Shown here: in pieces, positions 2,228-56,772 of the stretch
Numbering within the stretch: position 1 is the first letter of the stretch
How the letters are laid out: each line of letters starts with the position of its first letter
IMG/VR virus record: IMGVR_UViG_3300045988_023867
DNA length: 64,000 nt
DNA from: a virus
Reading direction: 5' to 3' (one strand)
Notes under the pieces: generated by a model
What the model saw: the letters and a program-made list of their open reading frames with translations, nothing else
The model's database searches: none
Told to the model about the DNA's origin: nothing
Translations under genes and position numbers: made by a program

Positions 2228-2247
2228 GTCGGTATAGATTATATTCA

Positions 2248-2296
2248 TGTCCATCCTCTACGGGGGGCGGGAGGAACGAAGTTCCGACCTTTGGCT
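2248..2296 (+). repeat. GC-rich element, extended form: core CATCCTCTACGGGGGG, then GCGGGAGG, then hairpin GGAAC-GAA-GTTCC, then CGACC
   Basis: Intergenic, directly after the stop of ORF 1970-2227. Shares its core with at least 15 other sites. Confidence 0.85.
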
Positions 2297-5522: not shown

Positions 5523-7880
5523 GTGATTGATTGTAGAGCTGCGGACGTTGAAGTACTTCCAAATTTTTATTCTATTACTTTTATTAGTCTTAATGATTAT
5601 CTGAAAGTATTTGCAGATTGTGTTAATGATAAAGGTAAACCTATACCATTAGTTCAAAAACTGACTGTTGCTGAAATTAAACGTAGACTTGATACTGTTA
5701 AGTGTGATGCGTTTTATATTACAGATAAAGACGATAGTCAATTATTGAGTTTAGTTGGTTATCTTAATGCGATGCGTAATAAAGGAATTAATGTTTATAC
5801 TTATAATGGACTTAGCTATGATAATCTTATGATAGCTGGGTTTCTTATGAATGTTAATTACTATGATAATACTAAGGACTTAATAAAGTATCTATATAAT
5901 CTTAGTAAAAAGATTATTTCTCTACAAGAAGATAAGGAACAACTATATAATGATTTTCAGATTAATACTGTTAAACGTTTTAAACTTCCTTATATTGGTA
6001 TTGATGTTATGCGAATATTCGCTCTTAATAAAGCTGGTGTTAGAATTGATAAAGATACAGGAGAACGAAAAGCTACTCCTAAAGGTCTTAAACAAACTTC
6101 TATAAATCTTCAATGGTTTGAATTACTAGAATATGAACTTCCTCCTATTTGTGACAAAGATGTAGAACTTTATTATGATAATCTATTATATAAAGGACTA
6201 CCTCCTGACAAAGTTAATAAACTTGTTGACAAGTGGGATAGATATATATTAGATGAATATATTCCACCTATGATGCATTATAATAAAAATGATGTATTTA
6301 TTGTATGTGAAATTGTTCGTCTTAATCCGGAAGAAATTAGGTCTAGATATTCTGTTAGTAGTGTATATAAAGTTGACCTTCTTAACAGTAGTCGTAGTAA
6401 TATGGCTGATAAACTGTTTGAGAAATTCTATTCAGAACGAAGCGGTCTACCACCTGAAAAATGGAAAGGTAAAAAGACTGAAAGAACTGCTATGAAACTT
6501 AGTCGTGTTATATTTGATAATATCGAATTTAAAACACCTCAACTTAAAAGTTTTCTTGATAGAATTAAAAAGAAAGTTCTTTATAGAGTTAATAAAGAAG
6601 AATTTAATGAGATTCTAACTATTGGAGATACTACTTATAGTATGGGAACTGGTGGGCTTCATAGTCAAGATATTCCTATGGAAATATGGAGTACTAGTGA
6701 TTATGGATGTAATGGTGTTATACCTTGTCCATCTCCTACGGGGGAACTTCAAAAAGCAGAACCGTTTACTTTAGTACATTGGGACATTAATTCAATGTAT
6801 CCGTCAATCATGAGTTCTTATTGGATATATCCAGAACATATGATTAAATCGGTATTTGTAGGATTGATAACGTGGATGAAAGATACACGAGTTACTGTTA
6901 AACATAGTTTAGAAGAAATTATAGATGGAGTTCCTAGAGAAGTTCTAGCGTTAGTGCTAAAGATTGTGATAAATTCTATATATGGTAAGCTTGGATTCGA
7001 AAAAGGAGATTTGTATGACAGATTAGCTGTATTGAAAGTAACGATAAATGGACAATTATTAATCTTAATGTTGATAGAGGAATTAGTACAGAACCATATC
7101 AAAGTTGTTAGTGCTAATACTGATGGTCTTATGGTTAAGATTAAAGATAGTCAATGGGACGTGTTTAACGAAATTGCAAGTAGATGGGAACAAAGGTCTA
7201 AGTTGAAGGCGGATGCCGACATCGTACATTGCTTGATAGCTAGGGACGTAAATTGCTATATAGCCCAATTCCGCACTAAGAAAGGTTTAAAGCTTGAATA
7301 TAAAGGAGCTTTAAATCCTCTTATGTATGCTGTTGACTTACAAAAAGGTTATGATATGCCTATTGTTGCACAAGCAGTTAGTAACTATTTTCTTGAACAT
7401 AAACCTGTAATGGAAACATTACGTAATGCTACTAATATTCTTGACTTTTGTAAAACTCAAAACGTTGGACGACAATTTCATGTAGAACAAACGTTTGTTA
7501 ATAATCAGCAAGTTCAAAGAGTTGTATGTCAAAGATATGTTAGATTTTATGTATCTAATACAGGTTGTATAGTTGAGAAAGTTCATAACGATACTGCATC
7601 TCGTTCTCGTATGGCTGCTGGTTCAGTTGTTACTGTTATTAATACTCTTGATGATATGGATATTTCATTGCGGAACATAAATTATAAGTATTATTACGAA
7701 GAAGCGATGAAGATTATTAATCCTATTAAACTAGGAATTAGTCCTAAAGGTAAAGGACGTACTCGTATTAAGAAAGCCTATGGGCAATTTAATAGTCTTT
7801 TTGATGATTCCGCATTTGAAGATGTCGAAGAAGATAATATTGAATTAGATGATTATGAAGACACTGGATTTGATGTATGA
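5523..7880 (+). CDS. Family B DNA polymerase with 3'-5' proofreading exonuclease
   Basis: Exo I is DVEVL, Exo II is YNGLSYDNL, Exo III is YNKND. Pol motif A is DINSMYPSI, motif B is KIVINSIYGKLGF, and the motif C region is SANTDGL. GTG start. Carries an in-frame GC-rich element at 6723-6750. Confidence 0.85.
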   Translation: MIDCRAADVEVLPNFYSITFISLNDYLKVFADCVNDKGKPIPLVQKLTVAEIKRRLDTVKCDAFYITDKDDSQLLSLVGYLNAMRNKGINVYTYNGLSYDNLMIAGFLMNVNYYDNTKDLIKYLYNLSKKIISLQEDKEQLYNDFQINTVKRFKLPYIGIDVMRIFALNKAGVRIDKDTGERKATPKGLKQTSINLQWFELLEYELPPICDKDVELYYDNLLYKGLPPDKVNKLVDKWDRYILDEYIPPMMHYNKNDVFIVCEIVRLNPEEIRSRYSVSSVYKVDLLNSSRSNMADKLFEKFYSERSGLPPEKWKGKKTERTAMKLSRVIFDNIEFKTPQLKSFLDRIKKKVLYRVNKEEFNEILTIGDTTYSMGTGGLHSQDIPMEIWSTSDYGCNGVIPCPSPTGELQKAEPFTLVHWDINSMYPSIMSSYWIYPEHMIKSVFVGLITWMKDTRVTVKHSLEEIIDGVPREVLALVLKIVINSIYGKLGFEKGDLYDRLAVLKVTINGQLLILMLIEELVQNHIKVVSANTDGLMVKIKDSQWDVFNEIASRWEQRSKLKADADIVHCLIARDVNCYIAQFRTKKGLKLEYKGALNPLMYAVDLQKGYDMPIVAQAVSNYFLEHKPVMETLRNATNILDFCKTQNVGRQFHVEQTFVNNQQVQRVVCQRYVRFYVSNTGCIVEKVHNDTASRSRMAAGSVVTVINTLDDMDISLRNINYKYYYEEAMKIINPIKLGISPKGKGRTRIKKAYGQFNSLFDDSAFEDVEEDNIELDDYEDTGFDV
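6723..6750 (+). repeat. GC-rich element copy, forward orientation, inside the DNA polymerase gene
   Basis: TTGTCCATCTCCTACGGGGGAACTTC, translated in frame as CPSPTGELQ just upstream of Pol motif A. Confidence 0.85.
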
Positions 7881-22858: not shown

Positions 22859-22953
22859 GTAAGATAGTTATATAGTGAGAACGTGCTAATGTTCATAGTT
22901 AAAGTTATACAGAATGAGCCTATCGTTGTTATCAATGGTAGGCTTAATTATTT

Positions 22954-23110
22954 CATCTCATCATTCCCTTACGGGGCGCGGAGGCAACGCAGTTGCCGAC
23001 CTTAAAGTCAGAAGAATCTACAGATATTGTAGATATTGACGATTAAGATATTATTTAAGAATCGGTTGCTTCGCAACCTCAGCCCCCCGTAGAGGATATG
23101 AATGAGATAT
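22954..23110 (+). mobile_element. MITE-like composite: two GC-rich element ends in inverted orientation (imperfect TIRs of about 25 bp) flanking about 105 bp with two GC hairpins
   Basis: Left end is ATCTCATCATTCCCTTACGGGGCGCGGAGG followed by hairpin GGCAAC-GCA-GTTGCC. Right end is hairpin GGTTGC-TTC-GCAACC followed by CAGCCCCCCGTAGAGGATATGAATGAGATAT. Intergenic. Confidence 0.6.
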
Positions 23111-23138
23111 ATCACTAACCATTAATATAGATAAAAAT

Positions 23139-23384
23139 ATGAAAGATAAATATTATGATGATTATAAAGATATGCATGATGATTATGACGAATATAATCC
23201 ACAAGAATATATAGGTCGTCAACCTAATCGTGAAGTACCTAATGAGCCTGAAGGTATTGGTTGTTTGCCAGGTTTTATTATAGGAATTGTTATATTCGTT
23301 CTATGTTGTGCTGCTTTTAGAGCTTGTGAACGAAGTATTAAAGACCCTAATTCTAGTCAATACGAATACTCATTTTTAGATTAA
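23139..23384 (+). CDS. Hypothetical membrane protein, acidic N-terminus plus one TM helix
   Basis: D/E/Y-rich N-terminus. The TM helix is LPGFIIGIVIFVLCCAAF. Confidence 0.4.
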   Translation: MKDKYYDDYKDMHDDYDEYNPQEYIGRQPNREVPNEPEGIGCLPGFIIGIVIFVLCCAAFRACERSIKDPNSSQYEYSFLD

Positions 23385-23807: not shown

Positions 23808-24386
23808 TTAATTATTGAACTTGCCAATAATATATTTTCTTAATTTAATTTCTCCTTTTTCATTCCTTTCAACTTTGACATTTCTATATTGTTTATTATA
23901 CATAGCAACAAATTTAATCATATTTCCTTTAAATAATCTATTATGATTTATAATATAAGTTGATTGAACATCTGTTATATCTAATAATGGTTCGTTACCA
24001 TTTTCTTTATAAGTAAGTTGCTTTAAAGCTTCTACTATTGTATCTTTGTTACAACATAAATCTCTAGCAGCATCTCCAATAGTGAATTTAACTATATTAC
24101 TATCGAACTCAATATGTTCCATTATATAATCAATTAAACAATGAGTATATTTTGTATAATAAACCCCTTTAACTTTAAAATAATTAAAATCTCTACAATA
24201 AAATCGTCTATCGCTAATGTTAGTATGAACATCTACTGTGTGATTAAGTACATCAATATCTACTACATTAGCATTAATTGTAGGTACAGGAAAACTACTA
24301 ATAGTAACTTTACTTCGTTCTTTTTCTTCTCGCTTAGTATCTTTCTTTGCAGATTCTTTAGCTGGTTTTAATATAAACTCTGGCAT
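23808..24386 (-). CDS. Hypothetical protein (last gene of the - strand module)
   Basis: 192-aa ORF. Confidence 0.5.
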   Translation of the reverse strand: MPEFILKPAKESAKKDTKREEKERSKVTISSFPVPTINANVVDIDVLNHTVDVHTNISDRRFYCRDFNYFKVKGVYYTKYTHCLIDYIMEHIEFDSNIVKFTIGDAARDLCCNKDTIVEALKQLTYKENGNEPLLDITDVQSTYIINHNRLFKGNMIKFVAMYNKQYRNVKVERNEKGEIKLRKYIIGKFNN

Positions 24387-24596: not shown

Positions 24597-27500
24597 TTAC
24601 TTCCCATTAACAATCCATTCAGCAATAGATTGAGTAGGAATAATACCAAGCATATTTTCAGTCAGTTTATAATACTTATTATTTTGGTCTAATTGCATTA
24701 TACGATTAATTCCACGATAAATAGGAATTTGTCTTTTAACATAAACGGCAAGTTTATTCTCACCTTTATACAGACCTGTGGTATAATTAGGATTAAATTC
24801 ATCTCCTTCAATTAGATACTTAGCAATAAATCCAAATGCAGACTGTACATCTTTGAATGATTGACCTAAAGCAACAGGACTTGACCAAAGTTTATCAAAT
24901 TCTGATACAGCACCAATATTATACATAATAGTTTCAGAAGATAAACGGTCTGCTTGATAAAGAGCAAGATTAGCTATAATCTTAGCTGTTTCATCGTCAT
25001 CGTCAGCGGCAAGTAATGCACAACTGGCAGCAATTCCGCCGAGTAGACCATAAGCAATACCTGTAAGTTCTCCTAAAGCTCTACGAATATTAGCTCGTTC
25101 AGCGTTTGACATTGTAGCATAATTAAATTTATAGTTTAAGAAAGTATCAATAAACGCTCTACAAACTTGTTGTACACCAGCAATAAATAGATTAGTGCCG
25201 TCTTCGTTAGCTTTAGCTTTAGCTCTATCAGTAAGTCCTCTAAATTCTGTTGTTGCAAAATCCCAAAGACTTACATAGAATCCACGTTCAATACTTTCTC
25301 TACTTTCATTATAATAACCATTTACACGGAAATGTTTAAGAGCTCCTGTATAAATATGTTTATGATATTGCATAAGTAGACTACCAAATACCCAAGTAGA
25401 TTCTATACGAGCACCACCTAATCTATCATACACACCATGAATCTTTTTATTAACTGATACAACTTTACCTTTAAATTTAGCAAGTTTACCTAAATCTACT
25501 AAACTATCATCTTTAAGTTTAGCATAACCATCTTGTAGTTCAAATTGGTCTATTAATCTAGGTTCAGATTCAAACTGTTTTTTAGCTTCTTTAGTAAGTT
25601 CATTTCTTACTTCTGCATATCTTAATCCATAAGACTTATCACTAAGACTACGTAAGAACTCTGTATTAACATCTTTCTTAAACCAAAGATAATCTTTAAG
25701 TCTATTCTTATCTTCTTTTATTCTATTGATAAACTTAGCATATAGTTCTTCAAGTTCAGCATTACCTTCGATAACTTTACGAAGTGCAACTTCTTCAAGC
25801 ATACGATTATAATTATGGAAATCTCCTATAACAACTTCTCCTTTTTGATTCTTATAAACTCTATTACTAAGCATCATAGAAAGCATAGCAGTATTCTGCA
25901 TAAAATGTTCACCAGCACTTTGTGGACTATAAGCAAAATCTCTCATCTTATTAATTATCTCAATACTATCAATAGATTTAGATGTTTCACGAATACCATT
26001 ATAGTCCACAACTCCCATGAGTTTAATTATCGCATCAGTAAGATTATCACTAGTATCTTTATTCATATTAGCAAGGAAATATGGAACTGCTTTAATATAA
26101 TATCCAAATTTAGCATTTTCCCAATCTTTATGATTGAAGTATTCTCCAGCATAACGTTCCATGAATATATTAGTAGAACCAGTTAATATATTACCAATAC
26201 CTCCTGTAATATTAAACATCATATATTTAGCACTAGCAATATTTTGTCCAACAGCAGCAAATTTATCCCATGTATTCTTACCTTTATATTCATCAAATAA
26301 GAAACGTTTAGACCAAGTTTCAATTAAATCAATAACTCTTTTAGGAGCTTGAGTTTTATAAACTTTTCTATCTTCTGTAGAATTTCTTCTATCAACTGCT
26401 AGATTATTAAATCCTGTAAGACGATAAGATTGAGCTTGTGTTCTCATGTATTCAAGAAGATAATAAAGGTCAAGCTTAGTTTGCGTTTTAGCATTAGCTT
26501 GAATAGCTCCTTTAATAAACTCTTCAAATACTGATTCATAATCTTTATCCATCAGTTTAACATCAAGCTGTCTATTATACTCAGCAGATTCTTCATTATG
26601 TTTCTTAATATCATCAACTCTAGCTTTATAATCTTCATCAGATTCAGTAAGACCTTGTTCCGGTATAGGTTCTATCTTTCTATAAGTCTTGTCCTTCAAC
26701 GAAGCTAATAACGGTATATTAGTTTCTCGGTCATATTCATAACCAATATTATCGCTAATATGTCTATCTGGGTCTAAACTTTGTCCAAATCCAATAGCAT
26801 TAAATGCGGCTTTAACAGTATTAGGGAACGATGATTCTGTCCTTCTCCTACGGGGGAACAGCCCTTTAGCAACGAATGACATAGCAGTATTATTCTCTTT
26901 AGTTAAATCATAAAGAGTATCTTGCATTAGCTTTCTTATTCGTCTTTCATATTCATTAGAATTATCAGTTCTATAATACTTAGCACTACCATTATAATTA
27001 TCAGTATATCTATTATAATTAGCATTAACTGTTTCAGAAAGTGGTTTACTTCTTGTATTATTATATGAAGCTACATAGTTTCTAGTATTACTAGTTTCGT
27101 CTTTAACTCTTATTGTAGTCCAAATACGAATTGGTTCCATCTTACCACTTAAAGGATTAAAGATATGATTTTTATCTTCAAATTCTTTAAGTTTGCCGTC
27201 TCTAATAGCTTGTTCACGTTCTTGCCAATAGTAACTTGTAGGAACAAATTCTATATTCTTATTTAAAAATTTAAGAGCTTTAGAACGTTTTTCATCAACA
27301 TAATCTTTATTAATAACATTACCATTATCGTCAAGTTTAGGAGTAACGTAACCGAATATATCGCTATTAGGTTCATTAGTATATCCTATAAAGATTCCAT
27401 TCTCATCATAATTCTTAGCATTAGCTACTGTTCTCCATGCAGTAAAGAACTCTTTACCTTTTTGTTTAGCAGCGTCTTCATCTAAATCATAAGTAATTTT

Positions 27501-30500
27501 ATCAGTATGGAATGACACTTCTTCTTTTAAGAACTTCTTAACTTTTTCATCTTTACGATGTAAACGTTTAACTTCATCAAGTCTATCATAAAGTTCACTA
27601 AGTTCTCGTATTTGTTCTATTGTCAAATCAGATAGTTTAATCTTACCTGTATTTGGATTAAGAGCGTCTTTAAGAATTGCATTAATCTCTTTTACAATAG
27701 TATTACGAGTTTTAGTAACTACTGTACTAGGAGTTGTAGTACTACTAAATCCAGCATAGAATTTCTTACTATATATTTGACTTATAGGAGCTTTATTACG
27801 AAGAAGTTTAACTTCTGCTGATTCTCCATCATTAGCACGATTAGCATATTGAGCTTCTTGCTCTTCTTTAATAGCTTTTACTTGTTTTTCATTAAATTGA
27901 CGACCATCAATAACTCCATAATTATCATAAGCATTTTCTGTATGTTGAACTATACTCTTGAATTGAGGATTCTTTTCTTCTTTGTTTCCATTAAGTGCAG
28001 CAAAAGCTTCATTAATTTCTGCCTGAAGTTTCTCATTAATTCTATAATAAGTATTTTCATTCAACCATTCAATAGCATTAGCATATTCATCTACTTGTAA
28101 CAATACATCTTCATTTTCTATTTGTCGTCCAGCACTATCAAAATGTTTATACTTATTAATAATACCAAGATAATGTTTTAAATCTTCTTCAAAACCTTCT
28201 CTAGTTTTACGTTCAAAGAATGCTTTTTTAATTCTACTAACTTCATCTACATATTTACGAAGATTAGAAGCTCTATTATAAGCGTCTTGTGGTTTCCATT
28301 CTCCTGTATTGAAATCAATAGTTTCTTGCATCTCTCTAATTTCAGAACTTAAACGTTTAATAGTAGCATTATCTTCTTCTGTACGATTACCTTTGAATAT
28401 TCTTAGTAACTTATTCCTTTCATCATTTAGTTTAAGATACTTAATATAATAATCAATATTATAATCAGTAAGCATAGAAGCTTCATTATCAGTTACTCTT
28501 TGATAATATTCAGAAACATATTTCTGTTCAGTATTAGCAAGATACCATAAGTCACGTTCATGTTTAGCTCTTAGATATTCTTTACTAAACTCTCCATATT
28601 TATCTTTAGCTTCTGCAATTTTAGCATTTAAACCATTCTTATCTTCTGTAAATTTATCAGTATGATTAGAAACAAATTTACCAGTTACAGGATTAATAAT
28701 ATTATTCCAATTAATCGTTTTACCAGCTTTAGCAGCTTCTGATTTAATACTAGCTAATTGTTTCTTATAGTTTTTTACATAATCATCTCCTTCAAATTTA
28801 AGTTTATCAAGTTTAGCTTTAGCTTCACGAAGAATGATTTGTACAATAGGATAACTAAGTTCTTGTGCATCTTGAAATAACCAATCAAGAACACTAGCAT
28901 CTTTAAGTATATAATTAGTTATATCAGAAAGTCCTTTATCAAAGTTAGGATTAGTACTAAGAGGTTTGAATATATTTTCTGCAACAATTTCAAATCCTTG
29001 CTTCAGTTTAGGATTATTCTTAATATTGTTAATAGTTTCTTGAATACCTTTAATATTACGTCTTGTAGCATCGTCTACATTATCAGTGGCTATTTCATTT
29101 ATTAACGGGAATGAATTACCAAATGTACTAGCTTGTAATATCAGACTTATATATTCATTACGTAATCCTTCATTGTTAGTAATAGCATTAATGGTATAAT
29201 CTGAAACTATATCATGTACTGTACCTTCTTCGTCAACTATAAAGTTATTAAGTTTACGTTCAAGTTCATGAGCTTTAGTTATATAAAATTCTGCTGAACG
29301 TTTAATAGTATCTTGTTTACGTTCTTCAATACTAGCAATACGTTGTTCTTCTACTCCATAATTAAGAATATCTTGATATGCAATAGAAGCACTTTCGTCA
29401 GAATTAATTCTAGCTCTAGTTTTAAGGTCTAATACAAATTGTTGAGCCAAATTACCAAGCTTAGATATATTAGTAGTTTCAATATCCATATCAATAGAAC
29501 TTGCGTGTTCTACATCTTCTATATCTTTTTCTACTTCAATCGTTTCACTTTTGATATAAGGAACAACAGTATAAATATTATCAGTAGATTGTACTCCATT
29601 ACGTTTAGCATTAGTTAATCCTTCAAGTTGTTCATCAGTAGATATTTTCTTATTAAGCTTAACTTGTTTACGAGTTATAATATAATCTCTAAGATTACCA
29701 TCATTATCCATTATAGTTTGAACAGCTCCTATATTCTTAGTACCAAATGCTTGTCTAAGAGTTTGACTTCCATTCCAAACCCAATAAACTTTAGTTCCAG
29801 GATTAGCAAACTTATCATTTATGCTACGAATAAAATTTCTAACTGATGCATCTTGTTCAGCAATAGTAGCAATAAAATTCCTATCAGTAGGGATTATAAT
29901 TTCTTTATCAACAGTAGGTTTTTTATATCTATAAGGTTCTATTCCTTCTTTAGTAAATAACTCATTCTTTTCTTCTGCAAGACGAGAGAATGGAGCTTGT
30001 CTTTCTTGACTAAGATTAATTATATCTTCATAATATCTACTAGAAGGATATTTATTATTTATAGGATTAGAACTAAATTCTCCATGTTCATTCTCTTCAA
30101 GATTGTTTAATGGAATAAGATATACTTGTTTATTATTACCTTCTTCATATAAACCAACTCTATATAAAGTAGAAACTTTTTTATTAACTATATTAATATA
30201 ATTAGTAGAAATAACTGTTTTAGTTCTACCATGTTTATCAGTAACATCCTTAACTATTCCTATCTCTTTAGCAAGTTCTGTATCTTTAACAGTACCAAGA
30301 TTAAAATAATACATCTTCTGACTATTAGGAAGATATGTAAGACTAGCTTTATTTTTATTATATCTTATTCTATAAGTAGGAATTTGTGGTATATTAGAAT
30401 GACTACGAATATAATCTTCGTAGATATTATCAGCAGCAAGTTCTTTATCATTTACAGAATTAACACCAAATCTGATACTATCAATAATTCCAGTACCTCC

Positions 30501-33500
30501 GTCTTCACGAGAAGTATATAAAGCGCTATTCTTAATAACTTTACTAACATTTCCTCTACGGAACTGATAGCCTTCTACAACAAAAGCATATTTAATAATG
30601 TCAATAGCAGTTAGTCTAATAATAGGATTAGTATTATTGAACGCTGCATCGAACATTTTATATATACTCTCCATGTCTTGTTGTTGGTCGTTAAAACGGA
30701 TTATTTGGCTACTTATTCCGCGTGTACGGAACTCAAATCCGTTAAACAGGTTGACGTTCAGTTCAGAAAAGATAGTTCGTTGTGAGCCAAGCAAATGGCT
30801 TTGTACGAAGTGTACCTTTTGAGCCGGAGTAAGTTTAGAGAAAGCATTAACTTCTTCTTGTGTAGGATTCGCAACATTATCTATATTAATATTATAGTTA
30901 ATATCATAACCAAATCCATAGATTCTCATTGTCTCATCCTCTACGGGGGAACGTCCCTCTGATTCTACTTTACTTGCAGTAAATATATCTACTGTAATAT
31001 TGCCATTTTTTTCAAGTTCAATAGGTTGTGATATAATAGCAGAATTGTTCTTATACATATATCCAAGAACATACTTCTTAAAATCATTATAAAGTTTCTC
31101 ATTAACACTTCCACTAATATAATTCTGAATACTATTGATAGCATTAACAAAATTATGAGATTCGGTTTCAAATAAACCTTTATTAATAAGAATGCTAGGA
31201 ACTGTACTATATCTCATGAATGCATCTAATGCAGGATAAGCACTTGGTTTTTCAGTTTCTGCTAAATATAATTCTGGCATAAATACTCCTGTTTCAGTAG
31301 CTTTAGTAATACCAGGATAAATAGCTTCTAATAATGGTTCTCCATTTACATTAATTCTATTAGCGTCGTCGCTATTAATAATAGTTCCTATATCATCAAT
31401 TACTTTACGTGTACTATATATAGTTTGTTTAGCTCCAAATTTATCAGGATTAAGTACTTTAACATGATTAGCTATAATACGACTATAATCATTAATATAA
31501 TTAAAGTTAAGTATGGCAGCTAAATCTATCAACATACTTGTTTCATCATATACACCACTATTTTGTGCTGCAAATCGTTCTTCAATAGTTGGAACATCTA
31601 TTGTAAATACAGAAGCATTATCTTTATTATCAAAACTAATAGTACTATTAGGATACATCTTAGCAAACTCTTCTCCATATTGTTGTTGAAGAGCAGTCAT
31701 AACTTCTGTAATATTATTGTTATCAGTAACTACTTCATTGCGTACTTTAACTCCTAAATCATGAGCTATACGTTTAATTGCTGTATGAATAGGATTATAA
31801 TTACCACGAACAAATACAGATTGAGATTCATAATAAGCCTCAACTATTCTACTAACACCCGGCTGACGAAGCCAAGCCATAGCTGTATAAGCATCACAAC
31901 CAATATCAAATAAAGTTTTAAATGCAGCAAACGTATATTCATTCTCATTCTTAATAGCTCCTTCTTTGATAGCATCTAGAATATGAGCAGTAGTATGAGA
32001 ACTTGCAACTGTAATATAATCACCTACTACGTTCTTATTGTTCTTACTATTTCCTATTCGATTATGATAGACTATGCCATCTTTGACAGGAAATGCCTGA
32101 GCAGCAATATCAAGATTAACTCTATTACCATATCTTACTCTAATAGGAACACTAAGTTCAGCTTTAGCAACATTGAATACAGAGTTACCTGTATCGCGAG
32201 CAACACTAAATGCTTTCAATGTAGCACCTCCCATAGCATTTCTATGGAATTGAATCTGGTCAAAAAGATTATAAACGTTTCTTTGTTTAGCACCAACAGC
32301 ATCAAGTTTATCAAGAGCTTTATTTGCAGCAGTAATATCATCAAAGTTACTACGAGCAAGATTCTCTTCGAGACTTGATTTATCATTCATGATAGCAATC
32401 ATACTATCAACGATACGATTGTTTCGAGCGCGACGGTTATTTTGGTCTTCAATAGGAAGCTGTTTAAATTCCTCATAAGTAGGTAATCCAAAAGCAACAG
32501 CACGTTCATTAATAATATCTCCGAATTTATCTCTTGATAATTCTTTAATATCATCTATTGTAAGACTATTAGCATTATCATTAATACGTCTGAACATATC
32601 TCTTTGTTCAGCAATAACGTCAGCTATTCTACTATACTTATCATAGAACTGTATAAATGCTGGATTATCTCCATATAGTCTACTATAAGTAGGCATAATA
32701 GAAAGGAGTCCACTAACTCTATCAGCAAACTTCAATTCTTTATTACGAAGAAAACCATCAACAATAGGTTTAAATTCATCAGGCAATTCATGATAAGTAT
32801 CACCCTCATCAAGAAGTTCTTTTACTCTCTTTTCAAGATAATCTTCTAAATCTTTATTACTCTTACGAATAACTTCAAAATATTTATCTTTAATAGATTG
32901 TTTAGTATCTCTATCTACTTGAAGCATATCTCGTGTTATACGTTCTTTATCAGAATTTCTAAGAACATGAGATACATATCTTCCATAAGTAGCAGCTTCA
33001 GCAGTACTATCGCTAAATTCTACTTTATGAATACGACCATCTTTACCAAGATAAGTCTCATAGGCAATACCATAAATAGAGTCAACGTCAAAGTCAGAAC
33101 CAGTCTGTGTTACCCATTCATCTGGAACTACAATAGTACTTCCCATCCATTCAGGTAGAAAACCTACAACTTTCATAACAGCCATAGACTGTTTACCCTC
33201 TGTTGGAATACGATAACCAATACATTTAAGAACTTCTTCATCAATATCTTCAATACGAATCTCTTTAACAAGATTACCATTTTCATCATATTGATTGAAC
33301 ATAGCTTTTGCCCATTTAGGAAGAAGTATTTCTACTTCTGAACCATCTTTATGATAGCCAAGTTCAACACGTTCGCCAGTATCAGTTTCAATAGTTTCAC
33401 CAGCTTTAAGTTGTTTACTCTTTTTAATAAGTCCATCAAGTCCAACACTAGTTATTTGTGCTCCATGCCATCCAGGAAGTTTTTGTCTTGTAATAAACTT

Positions 33501-46602: not shown

Positions 46603-49083
46603 TTAAATTGTAACACCTTTATCTCTAAATAATCTTTTATCTGTATTAGGATGTGTAGCATCATAAATACCAAGAGTATTATTATAATTTCTACGATTTT
46701 CAATACGACTAAGCATATCTTGAAGTCCAGCATTAATACCACTAAACATATTATTAAGAGAACTAGCTTTTTGTTCTCTAATAGCGTTTCTAAATTGAGT
46801 AGTACGATTTCTCCAATCATTATAAGCAGCAGTATTTCTACTTCCAACTCTTTGCCTATTTAATCTATCTTGATTAATAAGCTGAGTTTCTATATTTTCT
46901 TTTTGACCATAAAGATTATTTTTAGCGTATTGTCCAGCATTACGTAATCTTTGTTTTCTTTGAAGAGCTACTCGACTACTAGCTGTATTAGCAGTAATAT
47001 CGTCCATACTTCTACGAGTATTCTCATTAATCTCGCTTATTTGAGGTCTTATATTAAAATGGGTTTTCATAGCAGCAGGGACTTCATACATAGGTTCACT
47101 AGGAGCTTCCATATTATTAAATGATTTGCGAGTATTTATAGCACTAGCAATACTTCCTCCTATATTACCTGCAAGACCTATAATATCATTAGTATCTAAT
47201 TTATCAAATAAAGCAAGTCGTTTACGAGGAGATTCAATTACATCAGGAACTCCTGTATTAGTACTAGCTCCTTCAATAGTACGTGGTTCTATTCTAGTAG
47301 GGGTTTGAGCACCTCTAGTATTAATACCTTGAATCATTGTGTTTAAATCTGCAAATTTAGGTGCAGGTTTAGTTGGTTCAGCAGGTTTAGCAGCAGGCTT
47401 AGATTTACTCTTTCCACTTCCCCTACGGGGGGCTGTTACTTTGGTCTGCTTAGTCGTCGTAGTTGTCTGAACTGGTTGTTCAACTTTAGTACTTCTAGTA
47501 GTAACAGTTTTAGGTTTACTTTCTATTTTATCAGGAGTATATTGTGGACGTTCTAGCATATCTCTAAAGTCAGTTCTTGCTCCTTTAGCATCTCTACGAG
47601 CAGCGGCTTCAACATCTTTATCTGTCCCACTGCCAATAGGTTTAGCAGCATTACGTCCTGTAACTTTATATTGTTTTCCTTTATATTCGAAAGTATCTCC
47701 TATTTTATATTTGGTAGTATCAATTCTAAAGTCATAGTCTTTACCAACGGCTGCTTTTTCTCGTTCCCCCGTAGAGGATGGAGAGATAACTAGACCTGAT
47801 TTGACATTACCATTAACTGTTACAACTCTACCTCCTACTTTTTTTTTACGATTAAATATTCCTCTACCGTATTCAATCATATCATTAAATCCAGCAGAAA
47901 GTATATCACCAACTTCATTACTGCCACTTTTACCATAAATAACTTCTTCATTATTATCAATATAACCAATTCTACCTGGTTTGTCATTAATAGGACTTCT
48001 ACGTTTAACAGGACTTACAGTATTACTTTCTACTCTAACTGTATGTTCTTGAATAGGTTTTGATTTAGAAGGAACATATCTATTAGATTCTAATTGATTA
48101 ATTAGTCTACTATTAACTCTAGGAGCAGTAACTTTAACTTCAGGAAGATTATTAGAAGTTATGCTACTTCTAGTACTTGTTTGTTGATTAGTTTTAGGTT
48201 TTGAAGAACCAGCTACTTGTGTTCCATATTGTTTACCATTCCAAGTAAATTCACTAAGACCTTGTTTTCTAGCAGCAGCAAAAGCACTATTAAATGATTG
48301 TCTTTTAGTCTTAGGTTTAGCAGTAGAAGTATTATATTTAGCATTAGTTCTTTCAATAGCGGTTCTATTACTTGGAGTAACAGGTAAATTACCATAAACA
48401 TTATTCATTGACAATGTAGGTAGATTAAGATTACGTCCTTGATATTGAGGATTAGTTCTTGCATTTCTAAGAGCTTTAATAGTCTTAGCTTCTTCTCTAC
48501 CATAATAATCTCCGGCAAGAGTAGGATAATCTTCTCTTATACCTCCCATACGTTTCTTTTTCAAATCTGGATATTTTTTATAAACTTTAGCTTTAACATC
48601 AGAACGACCATGAAGTCCAGCAAGACGCAAAGCATCTACTGCGTCTGCTCTAGTAGGTATTGGATAACTTCTTCCACCACCAGCAAAATCTTTTTTATTA
48701 ATACTAGGATATGGTTTCTTACTTGAACCATAATCTTTATTTCTACTTAATCCTCCCATACGTTTCTTTTTAGTACCATCATCATTAATACCATTTACTT
48801 CTTTAAATCTTTCTTGAGCATTAAATACTTTAGCAGGATTAGCGCCACCCATTACAAGTTTAGCAGGACTATTACCATTAAGAATAGGTTGAGCACTAAA
48901 TACTTTTAAACCATTAGAATCTGTTTGAACAACTTCTCCGTCTTCAACTTCAAGTCCTGTTCTAGGATTCTTACCAATATCTATACCGCCAGCTTCATGT
49001 TTTCTACCTGACATATAGTATAGATTACCTTTTATATTAGTGGCACGTCCACCACGAACTATATTAGGTTCATATCTAGTCAT
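46603..49083 (-). CDS. Large basic hypothetical virion protein (826 aa) with duplicated KKKRMGG motif
   Basis: Lys/Arg/Gly-rich. The 20-nt exact direct repeat CCTCCCATACGTTTCTTTTT at 48542-48561 and 48752-48771 encodes the duplicated peptide. Two GC-rich elements in frame. Confidence 0.7.
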   Translation of the reverse strand: MTRYEPNIVRGGRATNIKGNLYYMSGRKHEAGGIDIGKNPRTGLEVEDGEVVQTDSNGLKVFSAQPILNGNSPAKLVMGGANPAKVFNAQERFKEVNGINDDGTKKKRMGGLSRNKDYGSSKKPYPSINKKDFAGGGRSYPIPTRADAVDALRLAGLHGRSDVKAKVYKKYPDLKKKRMGGIREDYPTLAGDYYGREEAKTIKALRNARTNPQYQGRNLNLPTLSMNNVYGNLPVTPSNRTAIERTNAKYNTSTAKPKTKRQSFNSAFAAARKQGLSEFTWNGKQYGTQVAGSSKPKTNQQTSTRSSITSNNLPEVKVTAPRVNSRLINQLESNRYVPSKSKPIQEHTVRVESNTVSPVKRRSPINDKPGRIGYIDNNEEVIYGKSGSNEVGDILSAGFNDMIEYGRGIFNRKKKVGGRVVTVNGNVKSGLVISPSSTGEREKAAVGKDYDFRIDTTKYKIGDTFEYKGKQYKVTGRNAAKPIGSGTDKDVEAAARRDAKGARTDFRDMLERPQYTPDKIESKPKTVTTRSTKVEQPVQTTTTTKQTKVTAPRRGSGKSKSKPAAKPAEPTKPAPKFADLNTMIQGINTRGAQTPTRIEPRTIEGASTNTGVPDVIESPRKRLALFDKLDTNDIIGLAGNIGGSIASAINTRKSFNNMEAPSEPMYEVPAAMKTHFNIRPQISEINENTRRSMDDITANTASSRVALQRKQRLRNAGQYAKNNLYGQKENIETQLINQDRLNRQRVGSRNTAAYNDWRNRTTQFRNAIREQKASSLNNMFSGINAGLQDMLSRIENRRNYNNTLGIYDATHPNTDKRLFRDKGVTI
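47413..47440 (+). repeat. GC-rich element copy, forward on +
   Basis: TCCACTTCCCCTACGGGGGGCTGTTAC, read in the 826-aa ORF as VTAPRRGSGK. Confidence 0.8.
47763..47788 (-). repeat. GC-rich element copy, reverse on +
   Basis: GTTCCCCCGTAGAGGATGGAGAGATA, read in the 826-aa ORF as ISPSSTGERE. Confidence 0.85.
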
Positions 49084-55400: not shown

Positions 55401-56261
55401 TTATTTCGGAAAAGTATAATTATAGAAATAACTACGCCAAGCATCACCATCTTTATCCCCTGATTCAGCTTGCCAATCAATAATAACTCCAGCTTTAGCT
55501 TTATTCTTTAATTGTTCCCATTGATAATAAGGATTAGTTCCATATTGACTAGCTCCAAGATTAAACACAGGATGTTTCATACCACGACATAACATCTTAT
55601 ACATACAGTAATATCCAATAGCTTCAATTAATATATAATTGTTAGGAATAACAGGAATATCACATTTATAATATTCACTATATTCAGTTTCAATTTCATT
55701 GGATATAATATCTATATATTTAGCATCAAAGTTAATCTCTATTGTATGGTCATCAATAAGGACATAACCTCTATCTTCACATCCTCTACGGGGGGCGGAA
55801 TAAAGCTCCTCAACAACAGTTGCTTGTTTTGTAACATCAGGAGTATTATTATGTATAGCTAAACTTCCATAAGTTTCTTTACCATTATAACCAGTATCAA
55901 CTATTGACATAGTATTCGACAATTCTAATGACTTGTCGGGCTGTTCCCCCGTAGGAGATGGAGAAGAACAACTACCACATCGAACCGATATAACATCAAC
56001 TTCACATCCATTATCATCATATACTTTAAGTCCTTTTGTACTAAATGGACAAGCAGTTCTAGCAATATTATTAATAACTTCTAATCGACGTTTCTTAGGA
56101 ACTACTCTAAGAACATCTAATTGTCCCATAGCATCTATAGTCCACGATATAACTCTAGGTATCCAATCGCTACCATCTGGATTAAAATCGTTGTCTATTT
56201 TTGCTATTATCTTTTCTACTGAAATAGTATTATTGTTTTGCATAATCAATAGTATTATCAA
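55401..56261 (-). CDS. Hypothetical virion protein
   Basis: 286-aa ORF containing two GC-rich elements in opposite orientations, read as APRRGCEDRG and SPSPTGEQP. Confidence 0.6.
   Translation of the reverse strand: MIILLIMQNNNTISVEKIIAKIDNDFNPDGSDWIPRVISWTIDAMGQLDVLRVVPKKRRLEVINNIARTACPFSTKGLKVYDDNGCEVDVISVRCGSCSSPSPTGEQPDKSLELSNTMSIVDTGYNGKETYGSLAIHNNTPDVTKQATVVEELYSAPRRGCEDRGYVLIDDHTIEINFDAKYIDIISNEIETEYSEYYKCDIPVIPNNYILIEAIGYYCMYKMLCRGMKHPVFNLGASQYGTNPYYQWEQLKNKAKAGVIIDWQAESGDKDGDAWRSYFYNYTFPK
55775..55803 (+). repeat. GC-rich element copy, forward on +
   Basis: CTTCACATCCTCTACGGGGGGCGGAATAA, read in ORF 55401-56261 as YSAPRRGCED. Confidence 0.85.
55938..55969 (-). repeat. GC-rich element copy, reverse on +
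   Basis: GGGCTGTTCCCCCGTAGGAGATGGAGAAGAAC, read in ORF 55401-56261 as SSPSPTGEQP. Confidence 0.85.
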
Positions 56262-56772
56262 GTATTACTTTACTATCAACAGTTAATTCTATATTATCAG
56301 TTTTATGAATGATTGTATAAGCTTTAATAAAATCTTCAATATCTCCTCTAAATATAATATTGTGATTAACTATATAAACATTATTTATTGTACTTCTACG
56401 TATAATATTATATTCTTCTAATTTATCTATTAAATAATTTAACTCTATATCAGAAGTACTAATTTCTTTAATATCATTATTATTAAAATCTAATATAATC
56501 TTGTTACTATTTATTGTAACATTATTTATAATATATAGTAGTAATTTAGATAAACGATTAAATTTATTATCTGATATGATTTTAAATACAATATCGTTTA
56601 TTATAAGTTTTGGTTCATTCTCTTTATATCTATTCACCAAAGACATCTTAATAGATTCTTTTTCAACAACATTATCAATAATTCTTTCAGAATATATATA
56701 AAAAGGAGTAATAAGAATCTTATTACGAAGTTTCTTATCTCTTTCTTCTATTTTAAAATTTATATTTTCCAT
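56230..56772 (-). CDS. Hypothetical protein
   Basis: 180-aa ORF. Confidence 0.5.
   Translation of the reverse strand: MENINFKIEERDKKLRNKILITPFYIYSERIIDNVVEKESIKMSLVNRYKENEPKLIINDIVFKIISDNKFNRLSKLLLYIINNVTINSNKIILDFNNNDIKEISTSDIELNYLIDKLEEYNIIRRSTINNVYIVNHNIIFRGDIEDFIKAYTIIHKTDNIELTVDSKVILDNTIDYAKQ

Follow-up and report, generated by a model that had tools for sequence, protein, structure and literature searches.

The unit at positions 22954–23110 of a 64,000-nucleotide viral DNA (IMG/VR record IMGVR_UViG_3300045988_023867, the whole of which is called the window) is, with a high degree of confidence, a dyad-symmetric doublet of an old DNA signal that is conserved at the nucleotide level in the Intestiviridae crAss-like phages; it is not a transposon, and its arms are made up of a core and a hairpin module. 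That this conserved doublet also acts as an initiation signal in single-stranded DNA is a broader statement that, taken as a whole, we put forward tentatively, our confidence in it falling somewhat short of even. The kind of element concerned is already known, interspersed DNA signals and ssi-type hairpins being its precedents; a dispersed, partly intragenic and dialect-bearing family of this kind in a phage lineage appears to be previously undescribed, and a literature search that included the motif strings found no description of this family.

The window belongs to an AT-rich (30% GC) crAss-like phage genome having the gene order of Carjivirus communis, the prototype crAssphage, and encoding a 4454-aa virion-RNA-polymerase-like (vRNAP) ORF. 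The unit occupies part of the 280-nt intergenic gap (22859–23138) found 3′ of a thioredoxin-like gene (Pfam PF00085, E 3.8e-5), and the coordinates, arms and two GC hairpins recorded in the initial annotation were all confirmed (Table 1). The imperfect terminal inverted repeats of ~25 bp described there are present and extend further: in a gapped alignment the module 22953–23012 and the reverse complement of 23052–23112 agree at 41 of 60 columns, a figure that covers the inner hairpins too, the inverted symmetry thus reaching ~55 nt per side. An ungapped repeat finder overlooked the pair because the two arms differ by indels. The left arm fits the family consensus tCTCCATCCYCTACGGGGG, and its sole change in five relatives is one G-to-A substitution 3′ of the G-run; likewise, the variation of hairpin 1 among relatives is confined to its loop (GCA to GTA). 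Hairpin 3 contains the exact mini-hairpin word GCGAAGC, located 16 nt 3′ of the core at 23090 on the same strand.

Table 1. Positions of the 157-nt unit, its parts and the related features of the window
Feature	Position	Strand	Description
Left arm	22955–22978	+	ATCTCATCATTCCCTTACGGGGCG; family core copy with pyrimidine-rich head and TACGGGG at 22970–22976
Right arm	23083–23110	−	reverse complement ATATCTCATTCATATCCTCTACGGGGGG; family core copy, 2 mismatches to the 16-nt core
Hairpin 1	22983–22997	+	GGCAAC-GCA-GTTGCC; 6-bp stem, G-N-A triloop closed by C-G; in left extended module
AT-rich spacer	22998–23063		66 nt; contains the central hairpin and three AGATATT words
Central hairpin	23016–23034		ATCTACA-GATAT-TGTAGAT; within the AT-rich spacer; absent from the initial annotation
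Hairpin 3	23064–23078	−	GGTTGC-TTC-GCAACC, read on the − strand as GGTTGC-GAA-GCAACC; in right extended module
Leader block	22877–22954	+	conserved; includes a terminator-like hairpin (22915–22946), then a T-rich tail
Single extended module	2236–2290	+	core and GGAAC-GAA-GTTCC hairpin, 32 nt 3′ of the stop of ORF 1970–2227; crAssphage counterpart 6027
Inverted pair 47425+/47772−	47416–47781		inside ORF 46603–49083; crAssphage counterparts 50977+/51411−
Inverted pair 55788+/55952−	55779–55961		inside the tail-tubular gene, adjoining RepL-like ORF 56230–56772; crAssphage counterparts 58520+/58732−
RepL-like gene	23808–24386	−	~700 nt from the composite; tblastn to crAssphage gp43 (annotated ‘RepL’), 33% identity, E 1e-11
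Second RepL-like ORF	56230–56772	−	E 1e-9 to crAssphage gp43; between tail-tubular and IHF-like genes, ~300 nt from the 55788/55952 pair

In the relatives the leader block (from GAGAAC) is found behind three different upstream genes, and it therefore travels with the unit. The 157-nt form is one allele of this locus: five relatives keep the long allele, and in three others the conserved leader is followed, at this position, by a minimal doublet of 46 nt. The relatives that have the 157-nt form have it at the orthologous locus only.

The core of the family, TCC-YY-YAYGGGG, occurs 17 times in the window (10 copies on the + and 7 on the − strand) with the consensus tCTCCATCCYCTACGGGGGAAC(AGCCC), and CCTTACGGGG, allowing at most one mismatch, is found 6 times against 0.26 expected. 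The short copies said by the initial annotation to lie inside genes are real: 14 of the 17 are within long ORFs that remain open, seven of them in the sense and seven in the antisense orientation, and they are read in all three sense frames (SPSPTGE, IPYGGT, SLRGN) as well as in both stop-free antisense frames (SPVEDGE, PRRG). The use of five reading frames, together with the presence of copies in intergenic DNA, indicates that what is conserved is the nucleotide sequence and not a peptide, and rules out a protein motif. In this family a DNA signal takes precedence over coding for protein at dozens of positions, one set of 16 bases being retained in different frames. A diversity-generating retroelement, a group I/II intron remnant and a CRISPR repeat were also considered and rejected, there being no reverse transcriptase, the ORFs being open and no array being present; as regards host mimicry, a scan of 596 Gb of genome contigs for a 16-mer gave scattered single matches, as chance predicts, and speaks neither for nor against it.

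The distribution of the family outside the window shows that it is shared by several genera. The exact 18-mer is present in 14 IMG/VR contigs that are 85–98% identical to the window, and in crAssphage and crAss002, two reference phages from other genera, a related word is repeated more often than any other GC-rich 10-mer. In crAssphage (BK010471) there are 33 copies of CCATCCTC[T/C]ACGGGG[G/A]GT, 15 on the + and 18 on the − strand, which fall into two subfamilies, TACGGGGGGTC and CACGGGGAGTA; comparison with the annotation places 11 coding copies in sense and 10 in antisense. The cultured crAss002 has 28 copies of CTCCTYTAYGGGGGAA. On the other hand, the family motif was not found in the first 50 kb of crAss001 (Steigviridae), and the family is therefore not universal in Crassvirales. 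The commonest GC-rich 10-mer there is CCTTCTGGAG, with 7 copies in 45.7 kb (8662–47140 of crAss001), and a looser scan yields ~15 related sites on both strands, some of which fit a small hairpin, CTCC-TTCT-GGAG.

The age of the copies can be judged from their positions. In a protein-guided alignment eleven copies of the window are matched by one of crAssphage at the corresponding site; these sites lie in the genes for DNA polymerase, SNF2 ATPase, primase and ligase, two each in the gp45-like, gp47-like and tail-tubular genes, the eleventh being the module at 2260 (6027 in crAssphage). Over the eleven orthologous sites the 16-nt core of the window is 86% identical to that of crAssphage, as opposed to 44% and 35% in the two flanks. 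At least three of the copy neighbourhoods (SNF2, primase and vRNAP) are shared by crAss002 as well; the primase-gene copy is read in crAss002 in a different frame (PLRGN vs IPYGGT), and the vRNAP-gene copy of the window lies 16–20 codons away from that of crAssphage or crAss002. Judged from the sequence, the latter case is one of local turnover that keeps one copy in the neighbourhood. The copies at aligned sites across lineages are thus old and fixed in place and are not recent insertions; furthermore, those present only in the window substitute for an equal length of sequence and add no length.

Among close relatives TACGGGGGAA is the least variable part, with 1.1% divergence vs ~5% in the flanks, and the pyrimidine-rich head varies by C/T changes (9%). 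Between two Carjivirus strains the short-term constraint is weak (core 2.6% vs flanks 3.3%), and the copy at 68500 of BK010471 has decayed in strain ZA (L189) through several substitutions and a 9-nt deletion. In the same two strains the first base of YACG shows a T/C flip in 6 of the 66 copy-by-strain comparisons afforded by the 33 copies, which is ~3 times the background.

These data bear directly on the proposal that the unit is a MITE-like composite representing the full-length form or progenitor of the short copies. Its descriptive part stands, the unit consisting of two inverted ends of the same family, each with a GC hairpin; its identification as a MITE does not. A true MITE accompanied by solo ends, that is a non-autonomous cut-and-paste element served in trans by a transposase, would account for the imperfect terminal inverted repeats, for the small size (157 nt) and for the related short copies found elsewhere. 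However, of five MITE hallmarks, the inverted repeats are present and target-site duplication, multiple full-length copies and empty sites are lacking. Indeed, no target-site duplication is seen at the borders of the unit, whose flanks (...TTATTTC before it and ATATCAC... after it) contain no direct repeat; the window holds no second full-length unit, and what recurs elsewhere in it is the ~45-nt end module alone, at 2236–2290. At the 17 loci compared among relatives that are 85–98% identical, the copies never coincide with an indel of 12 nt or more, so that there are no empty sites and no presence/absence polymorphism. No transposase is annotated in crAssphage or crAss002, nor was one found by a Pfam scan that covered 10 ORFs of the window. 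Since, in addition, the copies are orthologous across genera, leave the ORFs intact and add no length, a MITE is extremely improbable and the role of progenitor is not upheld.

The arms of the unit belong to what may be called the extended form of the module, in which the linear core (pyrimidine-rich head and YAYGGGG) is followed, 11–24 nt 3′ on the same strand, by a short and very stable hairpin of the C-GNA-G/GCGNAGC type, with a stem of 5–6 bp and a 3-base loop. The three module stems of the window differ from one another and yet all pair (GGCAAC/GTTGCC, GGTTGC/GCAACC and GGAAC/GTTCC). Covariation, by which the initial annotation proposed to assess the structure, was found in part: there are compensatory changes in the module 2236–2290, whose stem becomes GGAGC/GCTCC in relatives L020 and L015, and in the leader stem, where AGCCTA/TAGGCT is replaced by AGTCTA/TAGACT in L058, L059 and L061, but the central hairpin is left without such support because a G-to-A change in relative L057 breaks one of its pairs. 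In crAssphage and crAss002 the extensions consist of arrays of overlapping GCGNAGC words, e.g., GAGCGTAGCGAAGCGGAGCG. Of the GCGNAGC words, 9 out of 10 in crAssphage, 6 out of 10 in crAss002 and 2 out of 5 in the window follow a core at a distance of 5–60 nt on its 3′ side and share its strand, the expected number being 0.1 in crAssphage and 0.1 or less in each of the three genomes; most copies of the family have no mini-hairpin.

Directly 3′ of the 2260 module there is a possible small ORF for a membrane protein (MTDIIFFTICLLLIVA...; ~2319–2483, + strand), which falls below the 70-aa cut-off of the ORF list. The left arm of the short allele in L058 (1893–1913), TTCTCCTACGGGCGGCAGAGC, resembles the 338–358 region of 16S rRNA (ACTCCTACGGGAGGCAGCAGT), a likeness that we take to be probably due to chance.

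The propensity of the unit to fold is pronounced. The + strand folds with −60 kcal/mol as RNA (z −6.2) and with −31.4 kcal/mol as DNA (z −5.95), the − strand with −65.5 kcal/mol as RNA (z −7.2), and in each of these three runs none of 200 shuffles folded as well as the unit. The strong RNA folding of both strands would suit an element acting at the RNA level, be it a 157-nt structured small RNA or a bidirectional terminator, insulator or mRNA-stabilising hairpin, of which the dispersed copies would be the RNA hairpins C-Y-Y-C[UACG]G-G-G-G. Such a role would also fit the 5′ arm of the small hairpin, which varies only by C/T opposite an invariant G and is therefore G-U compatible, the frequent location of intergenic copies ~20–30 nt past stop codons and the terminator-like hairpin directly upstream of the unit. 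Nevertheless, in half of the cases a coding copy runs antisense to the mRNA, the loop varies (TACG, CACG, TATG), the stem of crAssphage subfamily B has a C-A mismatch and the central hairpin is broken in L057. Nor did Rfam 15 yield a covariance-model match at gathering score in the window, the segment 22800–23250 giving nothing but noise (E ≥0.9) at E values up to 10; no T-run (U-tract in RNA) follows the unit on its 3′ side, the sole terminator-like site being the separate hairpin of the leader. Furthermore, a G-N-A triloop with a closing C-G pair characterises hairpins of DNA and not those of RNA (PMC13037366). Taken together, these properties make a function at the RNA level very unlikely. 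No tRNA or tmRNA genes were found in the window. A promoter for the host RNA polymerase was likewise rejected, since TAnnTTTG is absent from 22860–23140 and is not enriched in the window, a sigma-70 scan gave no clear excess (11 found vs 7.9 ± 2.5 in shuffles) and the family has copies on both strands within genes.

The copies are arranged with some regularity. Their spacing is more even than random in crAssphage (CV 0.46 vs 0.82, P=2.5e-4) as well as in the window (P=0.011) and in crAss002 (P=0.024); strand counts are balanced, and in these three genomes all 16 pairs of neighbours lying within 1 kb of each other are inverted and none is direct (P=3e-5), all neighbours together comprising 54 of opposite and 21 of the same orientation. 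The absence of close direct pairs could be due simply to deletions that removed direct repeats. The 3′ extension of the core at orthologous sites is specific to the lineage, the window having GAAC(AGCCC) and crAssphage GGTCTAC or AGTATAGC, a circumstance that calls either for concerted change or for co-evolution with whatever reads the signal.

A layout of this kind is reminiscent of the uptake sequences of competent bacteria, USS in Pasteurellaceae and DUS in Neisseriaceae, for which even spacing, both orientations, coding as well as intergenic location and dyad pairs have been listed (PMC2817400). The family may accordingly be regarded as a recognition tag spread over the whole genome in the manner of uptake sequences or Chi, i.e., an orientation-dependent word read by a DNA-processing machine that would serve recombination, packaging or a nuclease sparing ‘self’ DNA; the word would accumulate by selection or by molecular drive (mutation and recombination), the intergenic inverted pairs being a by-product that may also act as hairpins. 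In fact, the phage family has even spacing, balanced orientations and dyad pairs in intergenic DNA, its coding copies occupy several frames at poorly conserved protein positions and, like the non-palindromic USS and DUS, its copies arise in place and not by insertion (PMC2817400); its lineage dialects, too, have a counterpart in those of DUS and USS (cf. PMC3630211). On the other hand, USS and DUS occur in competent bacteria endowed with an uptake receptor, uptake being a process that the phage does not have, and these phages have no known biased process. With its 16–25 nt, the part of the phage word that is conserved far exceeds Chi (5–8 nt) and the DUS/USS cores (9–12 nt) in length, some copies carry hairpins and the tight link with the GCGNAGC hairpins is left unexplained by a tag, which we consider unlikely. 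The link with recombination breakpoints that such a function might entail is weak in the window lineage, where 5 of 58 identity change-points lie within 60 nt of a copy (P=0.045), three of them within 10 nt, and is absent in the two Carjivirus strains (1 of 44 vs 1.75 expected), so that a recombination hotspot is held to be unsupported. In relative L038, identity is ~99% up to the copy at 26850 and then ~80% until ~31.1 kb (26600–31100 of the window having been compared), the divergent stretch being a mosaic segment inside the vRNAP gene that starts at a family copy.

The same features can also be read as those of selfish DNA. REPs are extragenic palindromes with GTAG at their 5′ foot, in the ori elements of yeast mitochondria AT-rich DNA is enclosed by inverted GC clusters, much as in the composite, and the yeast GC clusters and the Rickettsia palindromic elements (RPE) leave insertion footprints and decay as neutral DNA does. 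A selfish GC-rich mini-repeat family of one of these kinds would have spread in ancient times, would be tolerated in permissive protein loops and would be kept uniform by gene conversion or by a transposase-like factor, the composite being then a REPIN-like doublet. This would agree with the existence of GC-rich islands in a 30% GC genome, which the yeast clusters and the RPE share (some of the latter lying moreover in frame within genes at orthologous positions), with the two crAssphage subfamilies, the variable 3′ extensions and the in-frame residence in coding regions, and with gain and loss between lineages, including the copy that decayed in strain ZA. As in REP/BIME/REPIN, furthermore, the phage repeats are short and GC-rich, often form inverted doublets after genes, every close pair being inverted, and contain the GTAG/CTAC word. 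Nevertheless, the phage family is mostly intragenic and its GTAG lies, on the relevant strand, 3′ and not 5′ of the hairpin; no RAYT, transposase or reverse transcriptase is found among the annotated genes of crAssphage and crAss002; and neither empty sites nor target duplications nor other insertion footprints are seen. Unlike in the yeast clusters and the RPE, conservation is far higher in the phage core than in the flanks, and the core survives where these are saturated (86% vs ~40%), a result for which within-genome conversion would be insufficient unless there were a conserved reader, and both the even spacing and the local turnover that keeps a copy point to use. A selfish origin is thus decidedly unlikely; should it prove correct, this would be a rare intragenic repeat family in a virus.

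The reading that we favour sees the modules as initiation signals for RNA synthesis on single-stranded DNA, a mechanism that, taken alone and argued by analogy, is possible but more doubtful than probable. It is preferred because of the mini-hairpin precedents, of the inverted repeats used by RepB′ and of the restriction of a crAss-like vRNAP to single-stranded DNA. Mini-hairpins of the GCGNAGC type are unusually stable in DNA and occur at the start site of the G4 primase, at ssiA of RSF1010 and in the promoter of the N4 vRNAP (reviewed in PMC13037366), and the RSF1010 primase RepB′ starts on two inverted 40-nt repeats in oriV (PMC8567376). The phi14:2 vRNAP, which comes from a crAss-like phage, accepts as template only DNA that is single-stranded or denatured; this enzyme has no known early-promoter motif, and the early transcripts of phi14:2 showed no shared upstream motif.

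According to the mechanism proposed, the modules would act in single-stranded DNA as start signals for an enzyme that initiates RNA synthesis, the candidates being the phage DnaG-like primase and the virion RNA polymerase. In the doublet the AT-rich spacer would melt, or else the palindrome would be extruded as a cruciform, whereupon each strand would present core and hairpin in the same 5′-to-3′ order and synthesis could start on both strands in opposite directions, as it does at the two inverted 40-nt signals ssiA and ssiB in oriV of RSF1010. The shorter single copies, found on either strand at fairly regular distances, would serve as secondary places of starting or re-starting for the same factor, with which the lineage-specific 3′ extensions would have co-evolved.

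The proximity of the composite to a RepL-like gene makes it a candidate origin or bidirectional start site. An inverted doublet lies within ~300–700 nt of both RepL-like genes of the window and of both those of crAssphage, and in crAssphage the doublets have AT-rich centres and are upstream of the two RepL genes. Pfam gave no match at E<0.01 for the RepL-like gene nearest the composite, whose product (23808–24386) may be regarded as a candidate trans-acting partner of the unit. The second RepL-like ORF is found where crAssphage has none, and RepL-like genes therefore seem to be mobile within these genomes. The geometry of the doublets varies, being convergent in the window and divergent in crAssphage and crAss002, where, in the latter, the spacer is just 13 nt long.

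A known system that is close to the unit in its layout is oriV of RSF1010 (IncQ), in which ssiA and ssiB are likewise two modules of ~40 nt, inverted and on opposite strands, each with conserved single-stranded bases beside a hairpin, and are likewise situated beside AT-rich DNA and near an initiator gene; the mini-hairpin word of ssiA is CCGAAGG, those of the phage modules being GCGAAGC, CGCAG and CGAAG. Unlike the phages, which have 17–33 copies per genome, most of them hairpin-less and many intragenic, RSF1010 has one pair per replicon. To our knowledge, no RepB′-type primase exists in these crAss-like phages. The G4 and N4 sites are also comparable, both being hairpins of single-stranded DNA with stems of 5–7 bp and 3-base purine-rich loops of the GCGNAGC type (GCGAAAGC in G4, GCGGAGC in N4), and both direct the start of RNA synthesis on single-stranded DNA (PMC13037366). 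N4 differs in having three promoters, all on the template strand upstream of early genes, whereas the crAss copies are on both strands and inside late genes; moreover, the vRNAP of crAss phages has two barrels and no relationship to the polymerases of the N4/T7 type.

When the unit is compared with either type of site, what is found corresponds to an ssi, in that a stable hairpin of the mini-hairpin type stands beside conserved single-stranded bases. As for a promoter of the N4 type, the right arm is on the template strand 29–75 nt before the ATG at 23139 and the left arm is on the other strand, and the 2260 module and its crAssphage counterpart at 6027 are on the non-template strand for the genes that follow, a misfit with such a promoter at that place. 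The conservation at the DNA level, the constraint, the dialects, the layout, the covarying hairpins, the doublets close to RepL genes and the phi14:2 vRNAP were counted in favour of initiation signals; the mixed geometry of the doublets, the many intragenic copies without a hairpin and the weak short-term constraint in Carjivirus were counted against them, as were the length of the recognition sequence, 18–25 nt being long for a primase, the lack of a common motif upstream of the phi14:2 early transcripts, the possible deletion of direct repeats and the RepL-like assignment, with its 33% identity to an annotated gene and no Pfam match. A further extension of the favoured reading is that Intestiviridae genomes carry a genome-wide set of ~20–35 strand-specific signals in single-stranded DNA, each a conserved core that may or may not have a GCGNAGC mini-hairpin, whose dialects co-evolve with the enzyme and which set the starts of replication priming or of vRNAP transcription, doublets being origins or early promoters; this we regard as rather speculative and as considerably less likely than not. 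If such a set of initiation signals is real, it would be a dispersed and partly intragenic system that has no described counterpart in phages and that operates, among others, in the most abundant virus of the human gut.

The practical value of the family lies in the concrete sites that it offers for probing how replication or early transcription starts in the cultivable crAss002, in view of its being dispersed, conserved and strand-specific, of its having the hairpin type of primases and of the N4 virion polymerase and of its forming inverted pairs beside RepL-like genes. The word and its dialects furthermore provide a simple marker system for classifying these phages.

Tandem N-AGCG pentamers are found in extended copies of crAssphage (L063; 28190–28212 and 44920–44950) and of crAss002 (L054; near 86218), where they form overlapping GCGTAGC/GCGAAGC/GCGGAGC words, one of the arrays lying within the gp45 coding region. 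The words AGCGG and GAAGCGG contained in these arrays are equal to the Chi words of Bacillus and Staphylococcus, which may be a coincidence. Finally, a 98-kb contig labelled as an uncultured Clostridia MAG (L127, CAUWBF010000007.1) has three matches to the motif within 8 kb and a phage-like length; it probably stems from a crAss-like phage that ended up in the bin of a bacterial MAG.
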